DNA of 64,000 nucleotides from Dehalococcoidia bacterium (lineage in GTDB: Bacteria > Chloroflexota > Dehalococcoidia > Lucifugimonadales > UBA3495), in assembly GCA_034422655.1 (NCBI GenBank), contig DAOUJN010000039.1, forward strand, positions 16,937 through 80,936. Direction: 5' to 3'. Shown here piece by piece: positions 3,642 to 56,944 of this stretch (position 1 is the stretch's first letter; every line of letters begins with the position of its first letter). The notes under the pieces are model-generated. The model did not search any database, was not told the DNA's origin, and saw only the letters and a program-made list of their open reading frames with translations. A program made the translations under genes and the position numbers.

Positions 3642-3810
3642 CCCCAGGGCCGGAACCACTCCCCGGCCTTACCGGGCGAAAGTCCCAAAAGTTAACGGGC
3701 TGCCAACTGGCAGCCCGATGGTCATTCCACTATTGTTTCGCCGCTCCCCGTCTTGCCGGCGCCGGCGTGCCCTGAATGGGGCAAACCGGGCAGCGGTTTC
3801 GGGAAATCCC

Positions 3811-4239
3811 CTACTTCCCCGCCATGCAGTTCACGCAATTGACGTAGAACTCGAACTTGTGCCCCACGATTTCACCGGGGATCTGTTCACTGAGCGCCCG
3901 CATCAGGTTTTCGATGTTGGTGGCCCGGAATTCGCCCACGTTGCCGCATTTCACGCAGATGGTGTGGTGGTGGTGCTCAACGCTGGACAGGCTGTACCTG
4001 GGCGCCCCGTCAAGCATATTGAGGCGGCACAGCACCCCCGCGTTCAGCAGCAGCTTGACGGTCCTGAACACGGTGGCCCGGCCCACCTGGGGCAGTTCGC
4101 TGCTGATTTCCTCGGCGGTGAACCCTTCCGTCTTACCCTCCAGCAACTCGACAATGGCCCGCCGGGGAGCCGTGGTCCGATAACCCCGGTTTTCCAGGAT
4201 GGACATTATTTCAGTGCGGGTAGTCAGTGGCGCCGTCAT
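3811..4239 (-). CDS. Fur-family metalloregulator (Zur-like)
   Basis: Winged-helix N-terminal region (RTTAPRRAIVELL) and C-terminal HHHHTICVKCG...CVNC metal sites. It is divergent from a metal ABC operon. The start is uncertain: the ORF extends to 4305, and 4206 is an alternative ATG. Confidence 0.8.
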   Translation of the reverse strand: MTAPLTTRTEIMSILENRGYRTTAPRRAIVELLEGKTEGFTAEEISSELPQVGRATVFRTVKLLLNAGVLCRLNMLDGAPRYSLSSVEHHHHTICVKCGNVGEFRATNIENLMRALSEQIPGEIVGHKFEFYVNCVNCMAGK

Positions 4240-4351
4240 TGCACTTTTCACGCTGCCTGCCGCGAATTTGGCCCCGGCAGGCTCCCCATTGGCTGATATT
4301 AGCAACCGCCATATCTACCGTCAACTACTCTGCATTGCAAGGTATTCTCAG

Positions 4352-4393
4352 GTATCAATCAAATTTGATACTCCCATTCGTCCTATGTATAAT
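4352..4393 (+). promoter_or_regulatory. palindromic operator (GTATCAA-N6-TTGATAC) overlapping a TTGATA-N17-TATAAT promoter
   Basis: Inverted repeat at 4352-4371. The -35 is at 4365-4370 and the -10 at 4388-4393. It sits between the Fur-family gene and the metal ABC genes. Confidence 0.5.
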
Positions 4394-4558
4394 CGGCTGC
4401 GGCCCAACAACAATCTTCCGACCGTCATGCTTGCCCGAATGCCCTTATTTTCGATACCGAATCCCTGCTCTGCGCCTTGTTCCCCTCGCCGTTGCGGATG
4501 CCGAATCAGTAAGGCTATCTGTTCCGGAACCGGCGCAACCTGACCCAGGAGAACGCCT

Positions 4559-5335
4559 GTGAATACCCAGCCAGGCATAACCGTTACCGACCTTACCGTG
4601 GAACGGGACGGCTACCGCGCCCTGTTTAACGTCAACTTTCACATAGGGCCGGGGAACCTGGTGGGGGTTGTTGGCCCCAACGGCGCCGGCAAGAGTACCC
4701 TGTTTGACGCCATTGTGGGCGTTCTCCCGCCGGCCCGGGGCAGGGTGGAACTCCAGGGCATCGGCGCGCGCCGTGGCGGCCTGGCCTACGTGCCCCAGCG
4801 CGACAACATCAACCTGCGCTTTCCCGCCACCGTCCACGACGTGGTGATGATGGGCCGCTACTGCCACGTGGGCCTTTTTCGAGGCGTGTCACGGAAGGAC
4901 CGGGCAATAGTCCAGGCCTGCCTGGAAAGGGTGGGCCTGTGGGAACGGCGCGACGCCCTGATCGAGGAGAACTCCGGCGGGCAGCGCCAGCGGGTATTCA
5001 TCGCCCGCGCCCTGGCCCAGGAAGCCGGAATCGTCCTGCTGGATGAGGCCTTCAGCGGCGTGGACGTGGGCGCCCAGGAGGGCATCATCCAGGTGCTCCA
5101 AACCCTGCGGGACGAGGGCAAGGTGGTGATGCTGGCTTTCCACGACCTTACCAACCTGGCAGGGCGCTTCGACCAGATTATCTGCATCAACCGCCACATT
5201 TGCGCCTTTGGCCCGCCCGCCGAGGCCTTCACTCCCGAGGTGCTGGAGGAGCTGTACGGTTCCCATGGCATGGTGATGGCCCACACCCACCCCGGCGGGG
5301 AGACCCACATCGCCACCCACGTGCGCAATGATTGA
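4559..5335 (+). CDS. metal (Zn/Mn-type) ABC transporter ATP-binding protein
   Basis: Walker A GPNGAGKST, signature LSGGQRQR-like (NSGGQRQR) and Walker B IVLLDEAF. GTG start after an AGGAG RBS. Confidence 0.85.
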   Translation: MNTQPGITVTDLTVERDGYRALFNVNFHIGPGNLVGVVGPNGAGKSTLFDAIVGVLPPARGRVELQGIGARRGGLAYVPQRDNINLRFPATVHDVVMMGRYCHVGLFRGVSRKDRAIVQACLERVGLWERRDALIEENSGGQRQRVFIARALAQEAGIVLLDEAFSGVDVGAQEGIIQVLQTLRDEGKVVMLAFHDLTNLAGRFDQIICINRHICAFGPPAEAFTPEVLEELYGSHGMVMAHTHPGGETHIATHVRND

Positions 5336-6170
5336 TTTAATTTTCGACCCCTTTCAGTACTCCTTCATGCTGCGGGCCCTGATCGTGTCCGCATTGGTGG
5401 GGTTCCTGCTGCCCGTGGTTGGCGCCTACATCATCACCCGGGGCCGCGCCTTCATGACCGACGCGCTGGCCCATTCCCTGGTGGCCCCCGTGGCCGTGGC
5501 GTCGCTGCTGGGCTTTACCTCCTACATAACCGCCGTCCCCGGGGGCATCGCCATCGCCATGCTGATGGGCTTCCTGAGCCGCCAGACGGGGATCAGCGAC
5601 GATACCTCCATCGGCGTGGTCTTCGCCGGCATATTTGCCCTGGGGCTTATCATTCTCTCCATCAGCGTGAACGTAAACCCGGGCCGGGCCGTCAACATCG
5701 AGGACCTGCTGCTGGGCCAGGTGCTGGCGGTGACTCAGACCGACGTCCTGATATCGTTGGTGCTTACGGTGGCGGTGGTGGCGGGCGTCTTCCTGTTCCA
5801 CCGGCACCTGGTTTACACGACCTTTGACCCCGTATCCGCCCGGGTGGCCGGGGTTAAGACCTCGCTGGTCGAGTATCTGCTGTTGGCCCTGCTGGCCGTG
5901 GTAATCGTCATTGGCCTGTCCGCCGCCGGCATCGTCCTGGTAATCGCCATGCTGGTCATTCCCTCTGCCGCCGCCTACCTCCTCGCTCGCAGGTTCACGG
6001 GAGTCATGCTCCTGGGCGCCGTGATTGGGGTGGTTTCCACCGTCATTGGGTTGTACCTTTCCTACTATGCCAACTGGCCCTCGGGCCCGTCCATGGCGAC
6101 GGTGGCGTTCCTGATTTTCGGCATCGCCACCATCCGCAAGCGGGCCTTCCCCGTCAAGTCCGACGAATAG
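5328..6170 (+). CDS. metal ABC transporter permease (ABC-3 family)
   Basis: 280-aa polytopic membrane protein. Its start overlaps the stop of the ATPase gene. Length and hydrophobicity pattern fit ZnuB/MntB-type permeases. Confidence 0.85.
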   Translation: MIDLIFDPFQYSFMLRALIVSALVGFLLPVVGAYIITRGRAFMTDALAHSLVAPVAVASLLGFTSYITAVPGGIAIAMLMGFLSRQTGISDDTSIGVVFAGIFALGLIILSISVNVNPGRAVNIEDLLLGQVLAVTQTDVLISLVLTVAVVAGVFLFHRHLVYTTFDPVSARVAGVKTSLVEYLLLALLAVVIVIGLSAAGIVLVIAMLVIPSAAAYLLARRFTGVMLLGAVIGVVSTVIGLYLSYYANWPSGPSMATVAFLIFGIATIRKRAFPVKSDE

Positions 6171-6273
6171 CCGGGCTAGTCTCCTTGCCCTGTTCAGTTA
6201 CCGCGGCCCAGGTGTTATCATTTTGTCTCTCTCCCCCGCCGGGGGCGGTATTCTGGACATTGCAGGTGCAGCT

Positions 6274-7026
6274 ATGCGATTGGAAGGCAAGGTTGCGTTT
6301 ATCAGCGGCGGCGCCCGGGGCATGGGCGCCGCCGAGGTCCGCCTGTTCAGCGCGGAAGGGGCCAGCGTTGCCTTCGGCGACGTGCTGGAAGAGGAGGGCC
6401 GGGCCCTGGAGGCTGAGCTTGCCGAAGGCGGCGGTCAGGCCCTGTTCCTGCCCCTCGACGTCACCAGCGCCGAGCAGTGGCAGGCCGCCATTGATGCCGC
6501 CGTCGCCCGGTTCGGCAAGCTGGATGTCCTGGTCAATAACGCCGGCGTCCGCGGCGCCGGCCTGGTCGAGGACATCTCCGGCGACGAATGGGACCGGGTG
6601 CTGGACATCAACGCCAAGGGCACCTTCCTGGGTACCCGGGCGGCCCTGCCGGCCCTCCGCGACAACGGAGGCGGCTCCATCGTCAACATTTCGTCCCAGC
6701 TGGGCATAGTTGGCGTGGACAACAGCGGCCCCCAGTACCAGGCCTCCAAGGGCGCGGTGCGCATCTTTACCAAGGCCACCGCCATCCAGTACGCCAGGGA
6801 AGGCATTCGCGCCAACTCCGTCCACCCCGGCCCCATCGCCACCCCCATGACCGAGGGCGGGCGCGCCGACCCCGACCGGTACCGGACCACCGTCTCCCGC
6901 ATACCCCTGGGCCGGTACGGCGAACCCGAAGACGTGGCCTACGGAGTCCTCTTCCTGGCCTCCGACGAGTCCTCCTTCATGACCGGCAGCGAACTGGTAA
7001 TAGACGGCGGCTGGACCGCCCAGTAG
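6274..7026 (+). CDS. SDR family oxidoreductase
   Basis: GKVAFISGGARGMG cofactor motif, NNAG, and YxxxK (YQASK). Start chosen at MRLEGK; the track ORF starts at 6223. Confidence 0.9.
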   Translation: MRLEGKVAFISGGARGMGAAEVRLFSAEGASVAFGDVLEEEGRALEAELAEGGGQALFLPLDVTSAEQWQAAIDAAVARFGKLDVLVNNAGVRGAGLVEDISGDEWDRVLDINAKGTFLGTRAALPALRDNGGGSIVNISSQLGIVGVDNSGPQYQASKGAVRIFTKATAIQYAREGIRANSVHPGPIATPMTEGGRADPDRYRTTVSRIPLGRYGEPEDVAYGVLFLASDESSFMTGSELVIDGGWTAQ

Positions 7027-7116
7027 GAGGGGCCGCAACCCCCGCTACCCCACCCCGTTTTTGTGTTAGGATAGGCGGAAGGCGCCCCATTCCACCCATT
7101 ACCGGAGGCTTGTGCC

Positions 7117-7458
7117 ATGCAGATAGTACGGGTTTACGCTGGCGACGACGGCGAGTCCCACTTCGAGGACCTGACCGTTGAGCAGTTTGCCGAAATAGTT
7201 AATCGATTCGGGTCCGGCGACATTACCCTGAACGCCCGTCCCTCCCCCAGCTTCTCCGACTACCACACCGCGCCGCGCCGCCAGTACGTGATGAACCTGG
7301 CCGGCATTGCCGAGTTTGAGACCGCCGACGGGACCGTCCGCCGCCTGAACCCCGGCGACGTGCTGATTGCCGAGGACGTTACAGGCCACGGCCACATCGC
7401 CCGCAGCATCGGCGACGAGTTCCGGGTATCCCTGGCCGTCCCCCTGGCCGAGGGGTAG
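7117..7458 (+). CDS. cupin-like small protein
   Basis: 113 aa with a beta-rich pattern and a GDVLIAEDVTGHGH segment resembling a cupin barrel. GGAGG RBS. Confidence 0.55.
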   Translation: MQIVRVYAGDDGESHFEDLTVEQFAEIVNRFGSGDITLNARPSPSFSDYHTAPRRQYVMNLAGIAEFETADGTVRRLNPGDVLIAEDVTGHGHIARSIGDEFRVSLAVPLAEG

Positions 7459-12705: not shown

Positions 12706-13935
12706 TCACTCGGTCAAAACCCCTATTGTCCCCCCTGAAAGCGCACTGTTCATCATGGGCCCCAAATCCTCAAATGCCTGACCTTCCTCAGCCTGGCAGG
12801 CAACTTCCAAAACTGCCCCCTTGGGGGTGCTGATTGTTTCAATTTGCCAGGAGTCAGCGCAAACCTCAGTCAAGTACAACATAGTATGGAAGTCAGACGG
12901 TTCAGAAGGGTTGAACCGGAGCGCGAGTTCCGCCGCATCCTTTTGAGCCTCCGTCAAATCTGCATACCACAGTGAAAAAGCGATTCGCTTGAGGCCAGGA
13001 GACGGACGGCTGAACACCGCGCTCAACGCCTCCCATCTGCCCATCTTACCCCATTCATCCGGCCGCTCCAGCGGACTTGCCAGCCCCATCTCTTCCTGTC
13101 CGCGCACAGACTGGCGGTCCAGGATCGCCGCAAAGTGGGGGTCTGGAGCGATGGAAGCCAGATCGCCAAAGGCCGCATGGTCCATGAGGGAGGGGGTCTC
13201 TCCAGCCCGTGCTGACAGGAGTTCCTGCATCCTCTCCTCAGTCGGCGCGGTAATTAAGCTCCGCTCCTGAACCAGCAGATTCCGCATTTTCCTGTCGAGC
13301 ATTACCTGCGAGACCCAGTCAGGCTTCGGCCTGACATCTTCGGGCAAGGTCAAGTATTCGGCGCCCAGGTGACTGCGCCTCTCGTATCCAAAGTCAAGCA
13401 GCTTCTGGGTAACTCTTGCGGGGTCGAATCTCCCCAGCAACATTTGAACGTTGAATCTACCCAGCAGTATGTTGACCTCGGCATCCCTCTGGGGATTAGC
13501 GCCCGTCTCGGCCATGGCTGCTGTATCCCAGGCGCCAAAGCCAAAGGTATCGTCCCAGTCGGGGGATGAATACCTCATCGAGTGGCTGATCGAGATACCG
13601 GGGATGCCCGCGCGAGCATCCCAATAGGCCTGCTGTTGTTCGGGAGTCCACGATTCCCATTCCTCCCTCGTCCTGGCGGGTTGTATGTCCTCCAGCGCAA
13701 CGGCGAGCGCGGGGTTTGCGAACCACACGCCGGAATCAGCGACGCTGGCCGGCAACACCGCCATGACGTCAACCAGCCAATCAATCTCCTCCGGCTCCAA
13801 GGGCGCAAGGGTGCTTTCGGCCGTTGGCTGGGGTGCCGGAACCGGAGAGCCACCTTCCGGATCCTCCCCCGTGCAGGCGAAACCGGCGAAAGTCGATATG
13901 AACAACAAGAACACTGACATTAGAGCTGTTTTCAT
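12706..13935 (-). CDS. secreted protein / possible lipoprotein, function unknown
   Basis: Signal peptide MKTALMSVFLLFISTFAGFAC followed by a Pro-rich linker. The segment is AT-richer than its flanks. No family recognised. Confidence 0.7.
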   Translation of the reverse strand: MKTALMSVFLLFISTFAGFACTGEDPEGGSPVPAPQPTAESTLAPLEPEEIDWLVDVMAVLPASVADSGVWFANPALAVALEDIQPARTREEWESWTPEQQQAYWDARAGIPGISISHSMRYSSPDWDDTFGFGAWDTAAMAETGANPQRDAEVNILLGRFNVQMLLGRFDPARVTQKLLDFGYERRSHLGAEYLTLPEDVRPKPDWVSQVMLDRKMRNLLVQERSLITAPTEERMQELLSARAGETPSLMDHAAFGDLASIAPDPHFAAILDRQSVRGQEEMGLASPLERPDEWGKMGRWEALSAVFSRPSPGLKRIAFSLWYADLTEAQKDAAELALRFNPSEPSDFHTMLYLTEVCADSWQIETISTPKGAVLEVACQAEEGQAFEDLGPMMNSALSGGTIGVLTE

Positions 13936-15054: not shown

Positions 15055-16503
15055 ATGGGACTGAAAAGACTGCTTATGAAACCCCTTTCCGGCTATCCCG
15101 GCGGTTACAGGCACATGCGGCGCGGCACCCAGGGCTTTGACCAGACGCCGCCCTTCCGCGTGCCCGAAGACCCCGACGACCGTCGCAGCCGTATGCCGCC
15201 CCTGGGCTTTCGGGAGTACTGGTATCCGGCCCTGCCCGCCAAAGACGTGAAGAAGGGCCAGCCCGAGATGCTGCGGATGCTGGGCACCGACGTGGTCTTC
15301 TTCCGCGACCAGAACGACGAGGTGCAGGCCCTGCTGGACTGGTGTCCCCACCGCTCGGTGTACCTGTCCATGGGCCGCTGCTACTTCCCCGGTTTCGTTA
15401 CCTGTCCCTACCACGGCGCCACATTCGATGGCGACGGCAATTGCGTCGCCTTCCTCACCGAGGGCCCCGAGTCCAAGATGGTGGGCGCCCCGGGGATGAA
15501 GGCCCGCAAGTTCCCCACCGTCACCATCAAGGGCCTGGTCTTCGTGTGGATGGGCGACGGCGAGCCGGTGGACCCCCAGGAGGACATCCCTCCGGAAATG
15601 TTCGAGGAGCACAATATCCACCGGCCCGTGTTCTCCATGTTCGACTGCAACTGGGTGCTGGTGCTGGAAAACACCATGGACGCCCACAACGCCTTCATGG
15701 TCCACCGCAACGCCATCCGCATCCTGAAGAGCCGCCTGGGCGGTCGTCCCCGCACGCCCCTGGGCTACCGGGTCAACCTGGTCAACAACAAGAACGTCCA
15801 CTACCAGCCGGGCCGGGGCAAGTCCAGCGTGGAGCGCTACTACTACGACGAGGACGGCAACATCCCCTACCAGATGTACTACCCCGGCGTGGACGGCGTC
15901 TGGCCCAAGACCAAATGGCGTTTGGCGTGGACCTGGATTTTCGATCGCAAGGCCCGCAAGACCGGCCAGGCTCCCGGCCGGGTCCGCCCGCCCCAGGCCG
16001 ATACCAACGGCGTCAACGAATGGAACGGCACCCGCCTGCCGGGCATGTCGCGCACCGGCGGCAACAACGCCTTCTTCCGCAGCACCCGCTGGGCCGTGCC
16101 CGTGGAGGACGGCCTGACCCGCATGGTGTACTTGAACGTGGAACGTTACGGCAAGAAGCCCGGCGCCCTCCGCAAGCTGTGGAGTTCCGTGTCCTGGCCC
16201 TATCGCAACTGGGAGCTGAATTTCAACTTCCGGAACCAGGACTACGACGCGGAGAAGTACGTGCAGTACGACTTCCCCGAGTACCTCTCCTCCACCGACT
16301 CGGTGGTGGTGGCCATGCGCCGCCTCTTCGTTGAGCACAACCGCGACGTGCAGCGCCGCCGCGCCCGGGAAGAGGAACTGCCCGAAAAGCCTGAGGAAAC
16401 CCTGGCCGAGCAGATGGTTCGCGAAGGCGACGCCCGCGTAGCCGAAACCAGCGAAACCTTCGACATAGACCGCCTGCAGGAGGAACTGCTGCGGCGGGTT
16501 TAA
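15055..16503 (+). CDS. Rieske [2Fe-2S] domain oxygenase (ring-hydroxylating alpha-subunit-like)
   Basis: CPHRSV...CPYHGATF Rieske motif (CxH...CxxH), followed by a large catalytic domain. AGGAGA RBS. Confidence 0.85.
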   Translation: MGLKRLLMKPLSGYPGGYRHMRRGTQGFDQTPPFRVPEDPDDRRSRMPPLGFREYWYPALPAKDVKKGQPEMLRMLGTDVVFFRDQNDEVQALLDWCPHRSVYLSMGRCYFPGFVTCPYHGATFDGDGNCVAFLTEGPESKMVGAPGMKARKFPTVTIKGLVFVWMGDGEPVDPQEDIPPEMFEEHNIHRPVFSMFDCNWVLVLENTMDAHNAFMVHRNAIRILKSRLGGRPRTPLGYRVNLVNNKNVHYQPGRGKSSVERYYYDEDGNIPYQMYYPGVDGVWPKTKWRLAWTWIFDRKARKTGQAPGRVRPPQADTNGVNEWNGTRLPGMSRTGGNNAFFRSTRWAVPVEDGLTRMVYLNVERYGKKPGALRKLWSSVSWPYRNWELNFNFRNQDYDAEKYVQYDFPEYLSSTDSVVVAMRRLFVEHNRDVQRRRAREEELPEKPEETLAEQMVREGDARVAETSETFDIDRLQEELLRRV

Positions 16504-16538
16504 TTTCAGGAATGGAGAAACAGTTTAAAGGGTAACAA

Positions 16539-18956
16539 ATGGACAATAGGGAACTCTGCTGGAAACTTCTTCGTGCGGATAGCGAGGAAGAAGTTCAAAA
16601 GACCTTGAGGGACGTCGGATATTGGAATGATTCATTTGTCTGGCGTCCCTATGGGGACCTAGAGAACAATTACGGCACGATAGGGAACCAGCAAGGGGAA
16701 GCGGTTGCGGCCCTGGTTGAAAAAATTGTCAATTCCATAGATGCCAGGCTGATGAATGAATGCTTGGCTCGTGGTGAATCCCCTGAGTCTTCCGACGCTC
16801 CCCAATCAATCCACGAGGCCGTTTACCGATACTTCGGAGAAGGTGGTACCTTTGATCCGGATAGAAGTGGCCGTCTTTCCAACTGGCCCGACAGGAAGCT
16901 CAACGATGAAGGCGACTACATAACCATCACTGCAACGGGCCGCCGTCCTGAGTCCCGGAGAAGTACCGCTGCCCACCCGAGCTTGACCATTGCCGATCGT
17001 GGTGAGGGACAAACTCCCGACGATTTTCCTAACACTTTCTTGTCGCTCCATAGGAGCAACAAGGTTAGAATCAACTTTGTTCAAGGTAAATTCAACATGG
17101 GTGCGACCGGCGCCCTCCCCTATTGCAGCGAGCGCAACAATTTCCAACTGATTGTCTCTAAAAGAAACTCTGCCATTCTGAAGGGCGACGAATCTTGCCG
17201 GGCTTCAGAGTGGGGCTTTACCATGGTTCGACGAAAAGATCCCTCGTCAGACTCCCGCAGCTCTGTTTTCGAGTACTTGGCGCCCGTAGGGGCCACGGAT
17301 TCTAAGCGTGGGCAGGTACTCTCCTTTCCCGCAAACGACTTCCCTATTTTCCCTGACCGGCAGGGTCAACCTTATTCCCGAGGGTCTTCTTTCGGTACCT
17401 TGATCAAGCTGTATGAGTACCGCTGGCAGGGAACTTCTTCCAGCATCATTATGCCTGGGGATGGTAATGGCCTGATTCGCCGCATTGAACTGGCATTGGC
17501 TGAGCCTGCGCTTCCGGTGAAGCTGTACGAATGTCGAAACTATCAAGGTAATGAAGTGTTTAGGAGCGTCAGGGGGATACTCACTGACTTGGAGAGAAAC
17601 AGAGATGACATAGAAGAAGGCTTTCCGCAAAGCATGGATTTGTCAGTGGCTCAACAGAGGCTCAAAGCTACAATATATGCCTTCAAGCCGGGCGCATACC
17701 GTAGCCACAGAACGAACAGGCATGGTGTTTTATTCCTCTATAACGGCCAAATGCACGCTTCGTACACAACCAGGTTCTTCCAAAGACAAAGCGTAAGGAA
17801 GAGCTACCTTGCCAACGACTTGCTGGTTTTGGTGGACTGCAGCAACATCCAGCGGCGAGAATTTGAAGACTTGTTCATGAATAGCCGGGACCGTTTGAGA
17901 AGCGATTCCAAGCTCTCTGTGGAGATGGAGAAGAAATTGGAAGACTTTCTGCTCCACGACGAAACGCTTCGATCTCTGGAAAAACAGAGACATGATGCTG
18001 CAATTGTGGGCAAGGAGGATGAGGCCAGTAGAGAAGAACTACTAAAGGAAATTTTGGCTAGCAATCCTGAAATTTCTAGGTATCTCCTGGAAGGCGCTCT
18101 GCTCACTAGGGTTGGAAGAGGACCCCGCAATAATCACAAAGGCCAATTTGAGGGGAGGCAATTCCCCAGTTTCTTCGAGCCCAACCGCCTGGAATGGAAT
18201 GTTGGACTCGGTAAGAAAGCTCAATTGCAGTTCCAGACCGACGCCGAAAATAGCTATTTTACTCGCAGCGTCTCGCCAGGAAGCTGGTCAATAACAGCTT
18301 CTGACTCAGGCGACTGGACCAACTTCTGGGATCGTACAGGGCCCAAAGATGGAACAGCGAGATTCTATTGGGATACATCTGCCTTGCCGCCTGGATTATT
18401 GAAACCGGGAGCCAGCTTCGAATTTACTTTAGCAGTACGTGACGAATCTAGAGTTGATCCCCTTCAGAGTTCAATAAAGGTAAATATAACCGAACCAATT
18501 GACGGCAACGGCGGGGGCCAAAGAAATAAAACGGAAAAGGGAACGGAAGCGGTAGCTTCTCCAAACATAATTCCTGTTTACGAAGCCGAGTGGTTAACAC
18601 ATCCTTTAGGTTCGTTCAGCAGCGAAACAGCGTGTCGTATATCCACAGACCCTTCTGCCACTGTGGAACGAGAGGCCTGGGACTTCTATGTAAACGTGGA
18701 CAATGAACATATCCATCATTATTCGCGGACCAAGAATTGCCCCTTGGAGGCGGCTAGGAACGCATTCACAACCGCCGTGGTATTCATGGCTCTGGCACTG
18801 ATTCGTGGTGCGTCGCTTGGGGCATCATCAGACGGAGAAAGCGTGAATCATTCAGATGATTTGCCCGGCTATGTGTCTCAGGTTACCCAGTTTGTTGGTC
18901 CCGTCCTTTTGCCGGTTATTGACAACCTCGGTCTGCTAGGTACAGACTATCAATAG
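16539..18956 (+). CDS. GHKL/Bergerat-fold ATPase domain protein, 805 aa (MORC/HATPase_c_3-like N-terminus, unknown C-terminal two thirds)
   Basis: N-box EKIVNSIDA (aa 61-69), G1 DRGEG (aa 153-157) and G2 GKFNMGATG (aa 183-191). It is a single long ORF in a clearly AT-richer segment. Confidence 0.75.
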   Translation: MDNRELCWKLLRADSEEEVQKTLRDVGYWNDSFVWRPYGDLENNYGTIGNQQGEAVAALVEKIVNSIDARLMNECLARGESPESSDAPQSIHEAVYRYFGEGGTFDPDRSGRLSNWPDRKLNDEGDYITITATGRRPESRRSTAAHPSLTIADRGEGQTPDDFPNTFLSLHRSNKVRINFVQGKFNMGATGALPYCSERNNFQLIVSKRNSAILKGDESCRASEWGFTMVRRKDPSSDSRSSVFEYLAPVGATDSKRGQVLSFPANDFPIFPDRQGQPYSRGSSFGTLIKLYEYRWQGTSSSIIMPGDGNGLIRRIELALAEPALPVKLYECRNYQGNEVFRSVRGILTDLERNRDDIEEGFPQSMDLSVAQQRLKATIYAFKPGAYRSHRTNRHGVLFLYNGQMHASYTTRFFQRQSVRKSYLANDLLVLVDCSNIQRREFEDLFMNSRDRLRSDSKLSVEMEKKLEDFLLHDETLRSLEKQRHDAAIVGKEDEASREELLKEILASNPEISRYLLEGALLTRVGRGPRNNHKGQFEGRQFPSFFEPNRLEWNVGLGKKAQLQFQTDAENSYFTRSVSPGSWSITASDSGDWTNFWDRTGPKDGTARFYWDTSALPPGLLKPGASFEFTLAVRDESRVDPLQSSIKVNITEPIDGNGGGQRNKTEKGTEAVASPNIIPVYEAEWLTHPLGSFSSETACRISTDPSATVEREAWDFYVNVDNEHIHHYSRTKNCPLEAARNAFTTAVVFMALALIRGASLGASSDGESVNHSDDLPGYVSQVTQFVGPVLLPVIDNLGLLGTDYQ

Positions 18957-19026
18957 CAGTGGCCTACTAGCCCTTGAACCTATACCCTCCTCTTTGCCCT
19001 TCTTTCTGCCCGAGGTTCTTCCATCC

Positions 19027-20637
19027 ATGTCCGCCAACGCCATCTGGATTCTCTGTGTTTTCATTGCCTACTTTGTGGTCCTCATTGGCATTGCCATAGT
19101 CCGCTCCCGGCACATGGACGATATGTCCGACTACGTGCTGGGCGGCCGCAAGATGGGCTACGTTACCTCTGCCCTCAGCGCCGCCTCTTCGGCCACCAGC
19201 GGCTGGACGATGCTGGTTCTGCCGGCCCTGGCCTTTGCCGCCGGGATGATGCACCTGTGGACTGTCGCCAGCATTATCCTCGGCCACTGGTTTGCCTGGA
19301 CCATCCTGGCCCGGCGGATCCGCCGCTATAGCCTGGCAGCGGAAAACTCGTTGACCCTTCCCGAGTTCCTGGAGAATCGCTTCGGCGATACCAGCGGCCT
19401 GCTGCGCACCCTGTCGGGAGTGATAGGGATTTACTTCATCACCCTGTACGTCTGTTCCGGCCTTATCGCCGGGGCCAAGCTGCTGGAGGTCGTCTTCGGA
19501 TTAGACCAGATGGGAAATGGCCATAATATCGGCGTACTGGTCTCCCTGGTTGCCGTCGTGTCCTACACCTTCATCGGCGGCTTCCTGGCCGTGTCCCGCA
19601 CCGACGTTTTCCAGTCCCTGATTATGCTGGCCGGTTTCACCATCATTCCGGTTACCTTGATTCTCACCGTGAACAATCCCTTCCAGGGCCTGGAAACCAC
19701 CGCGCCCGGCTTCTGGAATCCCTTCACCGACCAGGACGATACCCAGCTGGGCTTCCTGTTCTTCATCTCGTCCCTCGGCTGGGGACTGGGCGCCTTTGGG
19801 GCGCACCGCATAATATCCCGCTTCATGGCCGTCCAGCGGGAAGGCGACATCCAGCGCAGCCGCAACGTGGGCTCAGTGTGGGTGGTGCTGGTCTTTCTCT
19901 TCGCCCTGCTCATGGGCCTGGTGGCGGCCCCGGCCCTGCTGGACCGCGGCATAATGCTGCCCGACGCGGAGAAGCTCTACCTGGTGGTAGCCGATACCTT
20001 CTTCCACCCCATAATCGCCGGCCTCCTTCTCACTGCGGTCATCGCCGCCGTCATGAGCACCGCCGACTCCCAGTTGCTGCTGGCTTCAGCCATAGCCACC
20101 GACGACCTGCCCATGATCAAGCGAATCACCTACTCCATGCGCACCCAGTCCCGGGTCTGGATGGGCCGCGGCATGCTGCTGCTGGTAGGCATCATTGCGG
20201 CGGTCATATCCATAGTCTCTCCCGAGTCGGTTTTCGCCCTGGTCTCCCTGGCATGGGGAGGTATGGGCGCCGCCTTTGGACCCGCCCTGATTCTTGGGCT
20301 CTACTGGCGCCGCTTCAATCGCTGGGGGGCGTTGGCCGCCGTGGCCGCCGGGTCAATAGTCTCCACCTGGTGGTGGCTGGCCGGCCTGAGCTACGAGAAG
20401 TACACTACCGTGGCCGACCTGCTGGGCTTCAGGGCCACCGTGGACCAGATGGAGGCGCTGGGGGTCTGGCAGATAAACCCCGGTGTGCCCGGCTTCGTCG
20501 CCGCCGTGATTTGCGCCGTTGCCGCCACGTTATTGACGGCGCCGCCGCCGGAAGAAGTTACCGAGCTATACGACCGGGTGAACGGTCCCAATTGGGTGGA
20601 GGAAGATCAGGCCGCCAGCCAGCCCCGGCCAGCCTAG
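19027..20637 (+). CDS. sodium:solute symporter family transporter (PutP-like)
   Basis: Polytopic protein with an SSS-type N-terminus ([10 protein letters not shown]...[11 protein letters not shown]). Start chosen at MSANAI; the track ORF starts at 18994. Confidence 0.85.
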
Positions 20638-54538: not shown

Positions 54539-55237
54539 TCAACCGAATAGGCCATTCAAAAAGGGTATTATGACATCTAACGCTCCGATGGCAGCTATTA
54601 TTCCAATGGCTATCGTGAGTACCATCAATGCTATTACTATTTTGTGGTAATCGAGTGATTGGCTATGTCGAAACGGATCGGACAGCGTCATATATTCTCG
54701 GACTGCAGACCCGTTCACCCTTTCATCAGATAAATTTGAAAACTCCTCCCAGTATAAGTCTGGTGCTGAGCGCAAGCTTTCATAGACTGATAGGAGTTCG
54801 GTGACTGCCAACTGTGTGTGAAAGACGTCTCTAAGCCGATTCAGTCTCCTTACTTTGACGAATGCACTCTCTGTTCTTTGCATTTCCACAAAGAAGCTTA
54901 GGTAAGATACTGAAAAGGCTAGCGTAGAAGTTGTGTGCAGTTGATCAAAACCAAAAGGCCATTTGCCAGTTATAAGGACTGTCGAAAAAAGAGCTCCTAA
55001 GATGGCCAACCCAGTGAATAGGACTATTACCGCTGCAGACACTGCGAACCAAACGTTCGAAACGGGTTGAAAAATTTGCTTTTCGACTCCCCACTTCCTG
55101 TATGTCGCACGGCTTCTATGAAAGACTAGGCGCACGATTAGCTGATATAAATGCTGACCGAAAAACCAATTATAGGCAAACATGAGCAGAAAGAGAAAAA
55201 CGACTATTGACCATTCAACGGAGCCAACATCCCTCAC
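54539..55237 (-). CDS. multi-pass membrane protein, function unknown
   Basis: 232 aa with a GTG start 7 nt after GGAGG. Hydrophobic segments at about aa 9-27, 61-89, 103-118 and 199-229, with a soluble helical insert at aa 120-198. This is the most AT-rich segment of the window. Confidence 0.7.
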   Translation of the reverse strand: MRDVGSVEWSIVVFLFLLMFAYNWFFGQHLYQLIVRLVFHRSRATYRKWGVEKQIFQPVSNVWFAVSAAVIVLFTGLAILGALFSTVLITGKWPFGFDQLHTTSTLAFSVSYLSFFVEMQRTESAFVKVRRLNRLRDVFHTQLAVTELLSVYESLRSAPDLYWEEFSNLSDERVNGSAVREYMTLSDPFRHSQSLDYHKIVIALMVLTIAIGIIAAIGALDVIIPFLNGLFG

Positions 55238-55304
55238 TTCCTTTCCTCCAGTTTTTGATTCTTGGATGGCTAAGTTAAACTATTCATCCAACCGATGTTG
55301 CTCT

Positions 55305-56804
55305 TCACCCCTGCCATATCCCCATTTCTCCTAATCTTTGCCTCAAATACGGCATATCCCTGTCGCCCTTAATTGCATTACATGTGTGGCACATCAGTTG
55401 CAGGTTCCCAACCGAGTCCAAACCGCCTCGGGAGCGGGGGGTAATGTGGTCAACGGTAAGTACGTGGAGGGGCAGTTCATACTGGCAGCCTGCACAGCGA
55501 CGTTGCTGGTTGGAATAGAGGAATTGCCTCTCAGATTGAGGACTGACTGGACTCAGCAGGTTCAAATCGGTGCGGGCCGGCGGCGAGGTCTCCGACCTCA
55601 TGGCTTGGCTCCAATCCTGCCAGGCCCTTCCGTTCCCATCATCTAGCGGTATCTGCAACTCACGTTTTGCGCGATTTCGCAGGGTTTCCACGGCCTGAGG
55701 CAAGATATCTATTCCTATCCATTCTCGCCCCAATTTTTCAGCAGCAATGCAGGCGGTGGCACAACCGCAGAAGGGGTCCAGTACCAGTTCGTTTTCGACT
55801 GAAGATGCACTAATTATTCTTTCTACCAGGGCTAACGGCTTCTGAGTTTTCCAACCTGTCCGTTCTCTAGATTGGGCCGATATTGGCCTGATATCAGTCC
55901 ACAGATTTGATGGAACTTGTCCCGGGTTGCTTGCCAGGTATCGTTTCAGCCGAGGCATGCCTTCCTTCTCGGGATAGTGGATCAAACCAGCTTTATCCAG
56001 AGCGTCCAATCTTTCAATCGGGCTTTCGATGAGGCGGTAGCCGGGGATGAAGTTTTCTTCAATCCATCTCGCATAGTTGCTGATATAAGGAATGGCCCAG
56101 TGCCGACCCGTTCTGTTTGGGTCATATCCCCTCCAAACGTGACTGCTTTGCCCTGTCCTCAGTTCGGCGGCAGTCAGGTCCCCGATTTGATATGCGCCCC
56201 GCTCGTCCTCATGCCGATAGAATCTGGCAACATAGTCAGAGTCCAGAGGCACACGTATGTTTCCAGGATTTATCCTAGCCCGGAGGCTGTAGAAAAGAAT
56301 GTTGTCGCACACATTTCCAAAACTGCGTGAATCGTTGTGAGCCGACGTCCGTTGCCAAGTGATTTGGCAGCGATAGGCCTGTTCGCCAAATAGCGCATCC
56401 ATGATGGCCTTCAAGTAATGGGATGCGTGAGGGTCGCAATGCAAGTAGATGCTGCCGGAGTTCTTTAGTATCCGGTGCATTTCAACGAGCCGGACGCTCA
56501 TGAAAGTGAGGTATCCGGCCATACTTTCGCCGTGGGCCAGCTTAGCGCCGTTAATCAGGTAAAACAGGGCGGGACGGCGATACTCAACCTCCTCGATCCA
56601 CTCCTGCTTCATATCATCCAGGGTCCAAACATCATCGAACTCGGCGCCGCGGGCTTCGCTGTCCAGGGGGGCGGCGTAGCTCTGGTTGGAGTTAAAGGGC
56701 GGGTCCAAGTAAATCAAGTCCACGCACTCGGAGTTGATGCCCCGGAGAATGTCGAGGTTATCGCCGGTAAATATGGTGCGGCTGGGTACGTTGCAGGCGG
56801 CCAT
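55305..56804 (-). CDS. beta-class N6/N4 DNA methyltransferase fused to a C-terminal HNH nuclease domain
   Basis: Positions use the numbering of the 510-aa track ORF. Motif IV is DPPF (aa 45-48), followed by TQKPLALVERII and motif I VLDPFCGCATA (aa 352-362). The HNH module is CAGC...DHITPRSRGG...NLQLMCHTCNAIKG (aa 448-491). Start set at ATG 56804; a TTG at 56837 is the alternative. Confidence 0.85.
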   Translation of the reverse strand: MAACNVPSRTIFTGDNLDILRGINSECVDLIYLDPPFNSNQSYAAPLDSEARGAEFDDVWTLDDMKQEWIEEVEYRRPALFYLINGAKLAHGESMAGYLTFMSVRLVEMHRILKNSGSIYLHCDPHASHYLKAIMDALFGEQAYRCQITWQRTSAHNDSRSFGNVCDNILFYSLRARINPGNIRVPLDSDYVARFYRHEDERGAYQIGDLTAAELRTGQSSHVWRGYDPNRTGRHWAIPYISNYARWIEENFIPGYRLIESPIERLDALDKAGLIHYPEKEGMPRLKRYLASNPGQVPSNLWTDIRPISAQSRERTGWKTQKPLALVERIISASSVENELVLDPFCGCATACIAAEKLGREWIGIDILPQAVETLRNRAKRELQIPLDDGNGRAWQDWSQAMRSETSPPARTDLNLLSPVSPQSERQFLYSNQQRRCAGCQYELPLHVLTVDHITPRSRGGLDSVGNLQLMCHTCNAIKGDRDMPYLRQRLGEMGIWQG

Positions 56805-56944
56805 TGGCAACTTCACCTGGGAGATTAAGGATGGCAAGGAAATGGTAGGGTTGACCCTGTTCGCCTGTCAATCGGAAAGTGTCAGCAGGGGCAGGGCGAC
56901 GTGTTGGATGGGTGGGTCCGAGTGCCCCGGGGCTGGGCGGCAAC

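Follow-up and report, generated by a model that had tools for sequence, protein, structure and literature searches.

An orphan GHKL ATPase from a Dehalococcoidia bacterium and the methyltransferase-linked family to which it belongs

What does a large GHKL-type ATPase do as an isolated gene between two metabolic genes? The question is raised by a 64-kb stretch of contig DAOUJN010000039.1 (assembly GCA_034422655.1, a Dehalococcoidia bacterium), hereafter called the window, in which an open reading frame (ORF) at 16539-18956 on the plus strand is enclosed by a Rieske oxygenase gene and a sodium:solute symporter (SSF) gene. An initial annotation had placed the ORF at these positions, had called its product a GHKL ATPase and had proposed that it might be a horizontally acquired single-gene defence protein. 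The placement was an exact match, with an ATG start and a product of 805 residues. Here we report that the gene is an orphan copy of a large family in which the ATPase is otherwise paired with a DNA methyltransferase (MTase), and that it is maintained in a lineage without the adjoining MTase gene. We lean slightly towards the reading that the product is a clamp ATPase, gated by ATP and dimerising, which was orphaned from a restriction-modification-like module, with a dispensable role in DNA surveillance or defence.

All three GHKL motifs noted from the initial reading were present in the canonical order I, II, III. These are the N-box EKIVNSIDA (residues 61-69, 16719-16745), the G1 box DRGEG (residues 153-157, 16995-17009) and the G2 box GKFNMGATG (residues 183-191, 17085-17111), all on the plus strand, as are the other parts of the gene described below. 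Invariance was read from 40 aligned homologues (40-84% identity), among which these motif columns did not vary: E61, K62, N65 and D68 in the N-box, D153, G155, E156 and G157 in the G1 box, and G183, K184, N186, M187, G188, T190 and G191 in the G2 box. With the same 40-sequence alignment as input, AlphaFold2 produced a full-length model with a mean predicted local distance difference test score (pLDDT) of 77 and a predicted template modelling score of 0.67. The best Foldseek matches of this model in the PDB were ParE (5j5p, E = 1.5e-8), GyrB (3zkd, E = 3e-7) and Topo VI-B (1z59, E = 5e-6), with 427-534 aligned columns and a probability of 1.0. Since these alignments span the two-domain ATPase fragments of type II topoisomerases, residues ~1-455 were assigned to a GHKL plus transducer unit. 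The GHKL (Bergerat) ATP-binding domain is supported by motifs, AlphaFold2 and Foldseek at residues ~56-300 (16704-17438), and the S5-like transducer domain follows at residues ~301-455 (17439-17903) with invariant N402-G-Q404, H406 and S449-R-D-R452. Ahead of both lies an N-terminal extension (residues 1-55, 16539-16703) of two helices and a low-confidence loop that carries invariant W29, W35, R36, D40 and G49-N-Q-Q52. By analogy with the N-terminal arm of GyrB and MutL, this extension is probably a dimerisation strap.

Profile searches gave little to add to the fold. The sole Pfam signal, HATPase_c_3 (E = 0.016), reached 15.7 bits where the cutoff is 25, so that GHKL membership rests on the motifs and the fold. 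NCBIfam, PADLOC and PDB sequence searches returned no match, either with the single protein or with a family profile. The label "HATPase_c_3/MORC-type" was therefore not established, as the nearest structures were ATPase domains of topoisomerases and not of MORC or MutL. Collectively, the invariant motifs and the modelled fold show that the 805-residue protein is a GHKL (Bergerat-fold) ATPase with a transducer domain, as originally called.

Beyond the transducer, the full-length model contained helices at residues 458-518, a beta-rich region at residues 540-720 and further helices at residues 723-802. A coiled-coil-like stretch around residues 470-520 and a hydrophobic C-terminal end had been anticipated, and these correspond to the helices at residues 458-518 and 736-802 of the model. 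The region was divided into a long helical linker (residues 456-539, 17904-18155; pLDDT <50 for residues 492-534), an immunoglobulin (Ig)-like beta-sandwich domain (residues ~540-652, 18156-18494), a disordered glycine-rich basic linker (residues ~653-674, 18495-18560) and a C-terminal alpha/beta domain (residues 675-805, 18561-18953). The Ig-like domain has an invariant T-D-A-E..Y-F-x-R loop (D568, Y573, F574 and R576) and an invariant D635. The C-terminal domain consists of three strands, which end in an invariant D715-F-x-V-N719-x-D721-N722 motif, followed by three long hydrophobic helices; by analogy, it is probably a constitutive dimerisation module.

To look for an effector domain, as the initial annotation had advised, we ran Foldseek on the full-length model and on a separate AlphaFold2 model of residues 535-805 (pLDDT 83.6), and no nuclease was found with either. 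The separate model resolved the Ig-like sandwich (residues ~545-651), the disordered linker, the three strands and the three helices. For residues 535-805 only Ig-like domains matched (best E = 1.4e-5), with no nuclease, Toprim or other catalytic fold, and the C-terminal alpha/beta domain gave no structural match. Two specific candidates were considered and rejected. A Toprim or Topo VIII relationship was suggested by the sequences ETDAE and VNVDN; these motifs lie in the beta-sandwich and in the alpha/beta tail, and Foldseek returned neither Toprim nor 5Y-CAP. A PD-(D/E)xK, HNH or GIY-YIG nuclease in residues 675-805 was dismissed on the unfitting order of motifs, the lack of an invariant histidine and the lack of a structural match.

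We then asked in what company such proteins are encoded. A word-indexed search returned more than 2633 matches, nearly all of ~800-830 residues, unnamed and without Pfam domains. Among representatives of 50%-identity clusters, 3014 matched at E<=1e-3 and 1073 at E<=1e-30, and nearly all were full length (770-860 residues). The family was found in 455 species-level genomes of Chloroflexota, Actinomycetota, Acidobacteriota, Planctomycetota, Verrucomicrobiota, Bacillota, Nitrospirota, Pseudomonadota and others; it spans more than ten bacterial phyla and is modelled in neither Pfam nor NCBIfam nor PADLOC.

For 81 non-redundant loci (numbered below with the prefix L), we clustered every ORF lying up to 5 kb from the ATPase gene. 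A gene of ~400 codons directly adjoined the ATPase gene in 63 of the 81 loci, and in 63 of the 64 that lie outside an orphan lineage of Dehalococcoidia described below. In nearly all cases it lay downstream in convergent orientation, the median gap being ~50 nt. Its product is a DNA methyltransferase (Pfam N6_N4_Mtase, E = 2e-14) in which the AdoMet motif DPFxGGGT is near the N-terminus, before motif IV, and motif IV is SPPY in 63 of 64 copies. Among methyltransferases with (D/N/S)PP(Y/F), SPPY is typical of N4-cytosine enzymes. In the reverse test, made on the best 80 of 533 loci matching an MTase profile, the ATPase gene lay beside the MTase gene in 79, and the single exception was on a 5-kb contig. 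Pairwise distances of the two proteins were correlated in a mirror-tree comparison (r = 0.65), a value that 0 of 999 Mantel permutations reached. The suspicion that a partner gene is normally present was thus well founded: across the family, the ATPase and the SPPY MTase form an obligate, co-evolving pair.

The position upstream of the ATPase gene is usually taken by one of several alternative genes on the same strand, often overlapping the ATPase start codon. These encode a protein of ~200 residues with an Mrr_N winged helix (15 loci, E = 6e-12), a family of ~390 residues (17 loci) and a family of ~210 residues (12 loci), the latter two without annotation, or a toxin-antitoxin-like pair of PIN and MazE-like proteins (10 loci). 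The pair, observed in 10 MTase-linked loci, resembles a VapC-like PIN toxin with a MazE/AbrB-like antitoxin (e.g. L058 7567-7968 and L047 848-1093). A common origin of the three larger upstream families was rejected, as hhalign found no relation between them, and comparison with PDB profiles gave just non-significant winged-helix hints. No helicase or nuclease was among the recurrent neighbours of the 81 loci.

Where, then, does the window copy stand? All loci without the MTase fell in the Dehalococcoidia part of the tree, except L053 and the truncated contig L075. The window gene (L003) forms a clade with L008-L017, whose proteins are 63-78% identical to that of the window; closer metagenomic relatives reach 76-84% identity, and a frameshifted second copy (L018) is 54% identical. 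The carriers of this window clade amount to only 10 species-level genomes. Further Dehalococcoidia loci without the MTase are L022, L023, L026 and L084, of which L023 and L084 keep the upstream Mrr_N gene, while the window clade has neither partner. Members of the MTase-less lineage have diverged to ~40% identity. No family-type MTase was found in the 64-kb window or within 8 kb on either side of the orphan loci. A 409-residue ORF at 12706-13935 on the minus strand of the window was considered as the missing methylase and rejected, having no similarity to the partner family.

Despite this separation the orphan gene is not decaying. The orphan lineage keeps 121 of the 142 positions that are >=95% conserved in MTase-linked members, including all GHKL motifs; the 21 lineage-specific changes at these positions include the charge reversals R350D and R442F as well as L498R. 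The ratio of nonsynonymous to synonymous substitution rates (dN/dS) was 0.089 between L016 and L017. Between the window gene and L008 (78% identity) dN was 0.127 and dS was saturated. By region, dN/dS was 0.03-0.16, the Ig-like and C-terminal parts included. The orphan ATPase is therefore under strong purifying selection, and a pseudogene or relic was rejected on the dN/dS of 0.089 together with the conserved catalytic motifs.

Two further cases concern orphan copies. L053 (8001-10364) is a solo copy without the MTase in a Candidatus Spongiisociaceae chromosome, a gammaproteobacterial sponge symbiont, and has a GC content of 0.41 compared to 0.65 in its flanks; it looks like an independent, recent transfer of the ATPase gene alone. 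The closed genome OY843611.1 carries two frameshifted ATPase copies, L018 (8001-10291, plus strand) and L015 (8001-10411), which may be either genuine pseudogenes or artefacts of long-read assembly. Divergent from the L018 copy, at 5542-7274 on the minus strand, is a beta-class methyltransferase, likewise frameshifted, with an Mrr-cat-like fusion at its C-terminus.

How the gene came to lie between the Rieske and SSF genes was addressed through its borders, its composition and the same slot in sister genomes. The Rieske/aromatic ring hydroxylase gene (15055-16503, plus strand) ends 35 nt before the ATPase gene (spacer 16504-16538), and the SSF gene (19027-20637, plus strand) starts 70 nt after it (spacer 18957-19026), confirming the tight spacing that had been described. 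No promoter-like site was found in the first spacer, no terminator-like site in the second, and the gene is not bordered by repeats, direct or inverted. As the gaps are this short and have no such sites, the ATPase gene is probably co-transcribed with its neighbours. Its mean GC content was 0.504 compared to 0.614 for the window. Windows of 500 nt gave 0.48-0.53 inside the gene and 0.62-0.68 in the flanks, and among 2.4-kb sliding windows across the 64 kb only 5 of 616 were as GC-poor. GC content at third codon positions (GC3) was 0.53 compared to 0.81-0.89 in the five nearest metabolic neighbours. The GC and GC3 contrasts with flanks and neighbours mean that the foreign-like composition is real and strong, as the initial annotation had held, although its estimate of 40-48% GC was slightly low. 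Each genome of the lineage (the window and L008-L017) likewise showed the orphan gene with a GC3 lower by 0.1-0.35 than its neighbours', a lack of amelioration despite co-divergence with the flanks.

The sister genomes were compared via orthologues of the SSF gene (81-93% identity); the Rieske gene is 87-96% identical in them. L204 has the order of the window, namely adh, Rieske, ATPase (76% identity), SSF, luciferase and luciferase, and in L009 the ATPase and the SSF protein have diverged from those of the window to a similar degree (70% and 71% identity). Some sister genomes that have no ATPase gene (L090, L098 and L095) retain a remnant of ~45-80 nt from its 3' end (18900-18956). In L090 and L098 the slot is 590-710 nt long with ~45 nt matching window positions 18912-18950, and in L095 a 690-residue gene (3751-5820) is followed by what is left of the ATPase, residues 779-804 (61% identity). 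The same replacement gene, of ~650-680 residues, occupies the slot in L101 (3771-5810) and L102 (3854-5809), where no ATPase remnant was detected, and L098 has a 5' remnant of it beside the ATPase remnant. Its product combines an NgoFVII-like phospholipase D (PLD; HKD) nuclease domain with a P-loop/SF3-like nucleoside triphosphatase domain by Pfam, and shows weak PADLOC matches to ZacB and mad8. Elsewhere, the ATPase gene lies between M16 peptidase and RNase PH genes in five other genomes. The L204 synteny, the L009 co-divergence and the 3' remnants indicate that the ATPase gene has long resided in a slot of gene turnover, from which several relatives have lost it by deletion or replacement. 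The "tightly bounded insertion" proposed from the window is hence not supported, and a recent insertion with mobile-element boundaries was rejected on the lack of repeats together with the synteny and remnants.

Two other parts of the window were recorded alongside the slot. The 409-residue ORF mentioned above has no Pfam or PADLOC match and a GC content of 0.55-0.59; it is absent at the syntenic position in the close relative L203, where an epimerase gene is directly followed by an adh_short gene, so we regard it as another indel in the region. A second GC minimum (~0.50) lies at 54539-56837 on the minus strand. It comprises the gene for a 510-residue fusion protein, a beta-class N6_N4 methyltransferase with an HNH nuclease at its C-terminus (55305-56837), and a 232-residue membrane-like ORF (54539-55237).

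At the level of the family, the ATPase gene is poorer in GC than its flanks at almost all loci, across hosts that range from ~31% to ~69% GC. The flanks of 17 MTase-linked modules (123 ORFs) were surveyed, with 113 flanking ORFs of unrelated SSF loci as a control. The most recurrent Pfam families in the module flanks were rve (4 ORFs), Phage_integrase (3), IstB (2) and DDE transposases (2), with single Pfam matches to an IS66 transposase and a phage terminase, and PADLOC matched TnsB and TniQ; in the control the top Pfam families were metabolic alone. The module is thus horizontally mobile, with mobile-element genes enriched in its flanks. PADLOC matches in the module flanks also included mREase_IV, DrmD, LmuA and DolB. 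A phage origin was rejected, as 50,697 phage records gave no match and IMG/VR just 5 loci.

Distant relatives of 24-31% identity were found on plasmids. On plasmids of Devosia (L088), Ensifer (L089) and Hymenobacter (L196), relatives of 29-31% identity lie beside Ssp-like phosphorothioation genes (DUF4007, 3'-phosphoadenosine-5'-phosphosulfate (PAPS) reductase and cysteine desulfurase), and those of Devosia and Ensifer also adjoin a 776-786-residue HATPase_c_3+HEF_HK+HATPase_c protein and an unannotated 635-680-residue protein. These relatives may act with Ssp modification as a restriction partner not yet described. A Halogeometricum relative adjoins a divergent DNA methyltransferase, and a Pontibacillus relative is solo. 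Given the Ssp-like and methyltransferase neighbours of the plasmid relatives, the wider superfamily tends to accompany DNA-modification genes.

Taken together, these observations suggest how the full module, and the orphan derived from it, may work. The module consists of a variable small DNA-binding gene or a VapBC-like pair, then the GHKL ATPase gene, then the SPPY MTase gene of N4-cytosine/N6-adenine type in convergent orientation, with the ATPase as the non-methylase half of a horizontally mobile, restriction-modification-like unit. A marine lineage of Dehalococcoidia (SAR202-like) would have lost the MTase and, in most members, also the upstream gene, while keeping the ATPase. In the protein, the arrangement of an ATP-gated N-terminus, a linker and a helical C-terminus would be the clamp layout of MutL, MORC and Hsp90 dimers. 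The C-terminal helices may hold the dimer together, as in MutL, MORC and topoisomerase ATPase subunits, and ATP binding may close the N-terminal gate so that DNA is entrapped or scanned; dimeric clamp action, DNA as the substrate and a role in defence would all follow from this analogy. In the full module the MTase would mark self DNA, and the small upstream DNA-binding protein may regulate the module in the manner of a C protein or target the clamp. Candidate effector steps are a cryptic C-terminal metal site, recruitment of a host nuclease, and entrapment without nucleolysis. The orphan clamp would then act without methylation, or with marks made elsewhere.

Several points weigh against this reading. 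Neither the protein nor its conserved neighbours hold a nuclease, helicase or other effector fold, and PADLOC has no model for the ATPase or for its distant relatives. An unlinked family-type MTase may exist in the orphan genomes, although none from these genomes was among the best 80 of the 533 MTase loci. The survival of a restriction-like partner after MTase loss is unexpected if that partner attacks unmethylated DNA. The apparent co-transcription and the co-divergence with metabolic genes would also fit a domesticated role. PADLOC families numbered 99 in the 113 control ORFs compared to 64 in the 123 module-flank ORFs; because control flanks matched more models, the flank matches were not counted as defence-island enrichment. 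The single-gene defence role first proposed for the ORF is accordingly plausible as an idea, but no effector domain in residues 535-805, no PADLOC model and no enrichment in the flanks speak for it.

One alternative keeps that proposal in its strict form, with a self-sufficient protein in which the GHKL part controls a novel effector in the C-terminal 270 residues and D568, D635, D715, N719, D721 and N722 form a candidate metal site. VcSduA is a precedent as a known single-gene GHKL defence (PMC12137116), yet we regard this alternative as rather unlikely. The whole protein is under purifying selection in the orphan lineage, in each region, its invariant polar residues cluster in the C-terminal domains, and a PLD-nuclease/P-loop gene takes the same slot in sister genomes. 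Against these, the confident C-terminal model (pLDDT 83.6) gives Ig-like matches and none to PD-(D/E)xK, HNH, GIY-YIG, PLD or Toprim folds, and Pfam, NCBIfam, PADLOC and PDB sequence searches were empty for this part. Moreover, the ATPase outside the orphan lineage is essentially never found without the MTase, from which it follows that the ancestral protein was not self-sufficient. Selection of the same strength (dN/dS ~0.09) would also be expected of a housekeeping clamp domesticated for repair, recombination or nucleoid organisation after the MTase was lost. Escherichia coli MutL is a comparison for such a role, as are the eukaryotic MORCs, for which an origin from ancestors associated with restriction-modification has been proposed. 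The stable synteny (the Rieske-ATPase-SSF order at 76% identity, and the M16 peptidase and RNase PH borders shared by five other genomes), the co-divergence with the flanking SSF gene, the operon-like expression suggested by gaps of 35 and 70 nt without promoter-like or terminator-like sites, and the 21 lineage-specific changes at positions >=95% conserved are consistent with domestication. We nevertheless find it quite improbable, for the gene is dispensable, having been deleted or replaced in relatives whose flanking genes are 86-96% identical; its clade is confined to 10 species-level genomes, its GC3 remains far below that of host genes, and both copies in one genome are frameshifted, possibly by assembly errors.

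Two further explanations turn on methylation. The orphan clamp could work with methylation supplied in trans, for example by the beta-class MTase-HNH fusion at 55305-56837. Homologues of this fusion (58-80% identity) were present in 6 of 10 window-clade carriers compared to 1 of 30 sister genomes (Fisher p = 3e-4, uncorrected for kinship or assembly completeness), and in 4 of 7 compared to 1 of 18 when long-read assemblies alone were considered (p = 0.012, kinship uncorrected). A beta-class MTase/Mrr-cat-like fusion also stands 730 nt upstream of, and divergent from, the second ATPase copy (L018), and within the window GC content is lowest at the ATPase locus and the MTase-HNH locus. Apart from L018, however, the genes are never adjacent and lie 0.3-1.5 Mb apart in closed genomes; 4 of 10 carriers have no fusion and ~30 genomes have the fusion without the ATPase. 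As the fusion is moreover of a different methyltransferase class than the SPPY partner, and the comparison is uncorrected for phylogeny or assembly completeness, this explanation appears very improbable. The other possibility is that the ATPase just loads or activates its MTase, as the AAA+ protein MtsA does for MtsC in MANTIS, an example of ATPase-dependent methylation (bioRxiv 10.64898/2026.09.23.753747), so that the orphan would be a functionless relic. The obligate linkage and co-evolution of the pair and the deletions and remnants in sister genomes would agree with this, but the strong purifying selection (dN/dS 0.089; dS saturated at 78% identity), the retained catalytic motifs and the persistence of the MTase-less state in a lineage diverged to ~40% identity make it barely credible. 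Returning to the reading of an orphaned clamp, a bolder form of it would have the GHKL ATPase and SPPY MTase confer nuclease-free, methylation-based immunity, in which a MORC-like clamp entraps or silences unmethylated incoming DNA uncut and the orphan clamp is used without its own methylase, alone or reading the marks of unlinked enzymes such as the MTase-HNH fusion; this we consider unlikely.

What the locus may contribute lies mainly in the family behind it. GHKL+S5 ATPases linked to restriction-modification were reportedly predicted in 2008 to be ancestors of the eukaryotic MORC chromatin silencers. VcSduA, which has a fused nuclease, is the sole experimentally tested bacterial type found in the literature searched (PMC12137116). 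The family described here is large, unmodelled and almost one-to-one with a dedicated MTase, yet has no visible nuclease or helicase. If its role is in defence, it would represent a minimal two-gene, methylation-based self/non-self module, possibly non-nucleolytic, and would be directly relevant to the way in which DNA marks are read by MORC-like clamps. Such a clamp without its methylase can be studied in the orphan lineage as a natural experiment. We infer the defence role and the mechanism, and the window itself has the orphan copy only; the question can be tested, since Aeoliella straminimaris ICT_H6.2 and Sphingopyxis flava R11H, both in culture, carry the full module.

Among known systems, several were set aside by their components. 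BREX (bacteriophage exclusion), MANTIS and MADS membership was rejected since PglZ, BrxC, PglX, MtsA-D and Mad components were absent in PADLOC searches of the protein, its relatives and the upstream genes. For the phosphorothioation restriction modules SspFGH, SspE, PbeABCD and DndFGH, PADLOC found no homology to any component (Walker-A SspF, FtsK-like SspH, HKD-SF2 PbeA or the CxC ABC ATPase), and no GHKL component appears in the published descriptions (PMC8092258, PMC10853773). HEF_HK two-component-like elements have different components and gave no PADLOC or Pfam match. Compared to classical Type II restriction-modification systems, the family has a Type II-like MTase partner and no nuclease domain was found, while the window copy has no adjacent MTase.

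Other systems share more with the ATPase. Like BREX and MANTIS/Gao_RL (bioRxiv 10.64898/2026.09.23.753747), the module has an MTase obligately coupled to an ATPase, which makes self-marking by methylation plausible, and like BREX it has no recognisable nuclease in its core; in contrast to both, it has no PglZ, BrxC, PglX, AAA+ or helicase-nuclease components and a core of two genes. The best structural matches to residues ~1-490, the N-terminal strap probably included, were the 43-kDa fragment of ParE/GyrB and Topo VI-B. Unlike type II topoisomerases and Topo VIII, however, the protein lacks Toprim and a 5Y-CAP/winged-helix cleavage domain and is not accompanied by an A subunit. With the MutL-MutH-Dam system it shares a GHKL plus transducer clamp that has no nuclease of its own, is tied to methylation and would be dimerised at the C-terminus; it differs in having no MutL C-terminal domain and no MutS or MutH partner, in its linked, module-specific methylase and in being an accessory, mobile gene. 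VcSduA (Shedu type I-D, paraMORC3) is a validated single-gene GHKL defence in which a C-terminal DUF4263 PD-(D/E)xK nuclease is essential (PMC12137116). Both are single polypeptides with an N-terminal GHKL domain, a clamp-like middle, a predicted dimeric state and the possibility of standing alone, but the ATPase has no DUF4263 nuclease by Pfam, PADLOC or Foldseek, and VcSduA is not paired with a methylase.

The closest comparison is with prokaryotic MORC and paraMORC1-5, the GHKL+S5 ATPases of restriction-modification systems (Iyer, Abhiman & Aravind 2008, PMC2292703). In common with these, the family has a GHKL domain at the N-terminus, its ATP motifs intact, with an S5/transducer domain after it, a sporadic, laterally mobile distribution with methylase linkage, as well as stand-alone members as in some subfamilies, and a proposed action as an ATP-driven DNA-manipulating engine. 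A neighbouring methylase, the contextual mark of MORC/paraMORC, is present for the family and absent for the window copy. In contrast to MORC/paraMORC, HATPase_c_3 scores below threshold, the conserved neighbourhoods have no SFII helicase, Vsr, HNH or restriction-endonuclease-fold nuclease, the dedicated partner is an SPPY enzyme of N6_N4 type with motif I before motif IV and not a cytosine-5 methylase, and the C-terminus is Ig-like with a helical tail, not RecB-like, TIR or HxH. Judged by its layout and by the published descriptions, the ATPase appears to belong to a new, large paraMORC-like family that defines a two-gene, methylase-coupled module.

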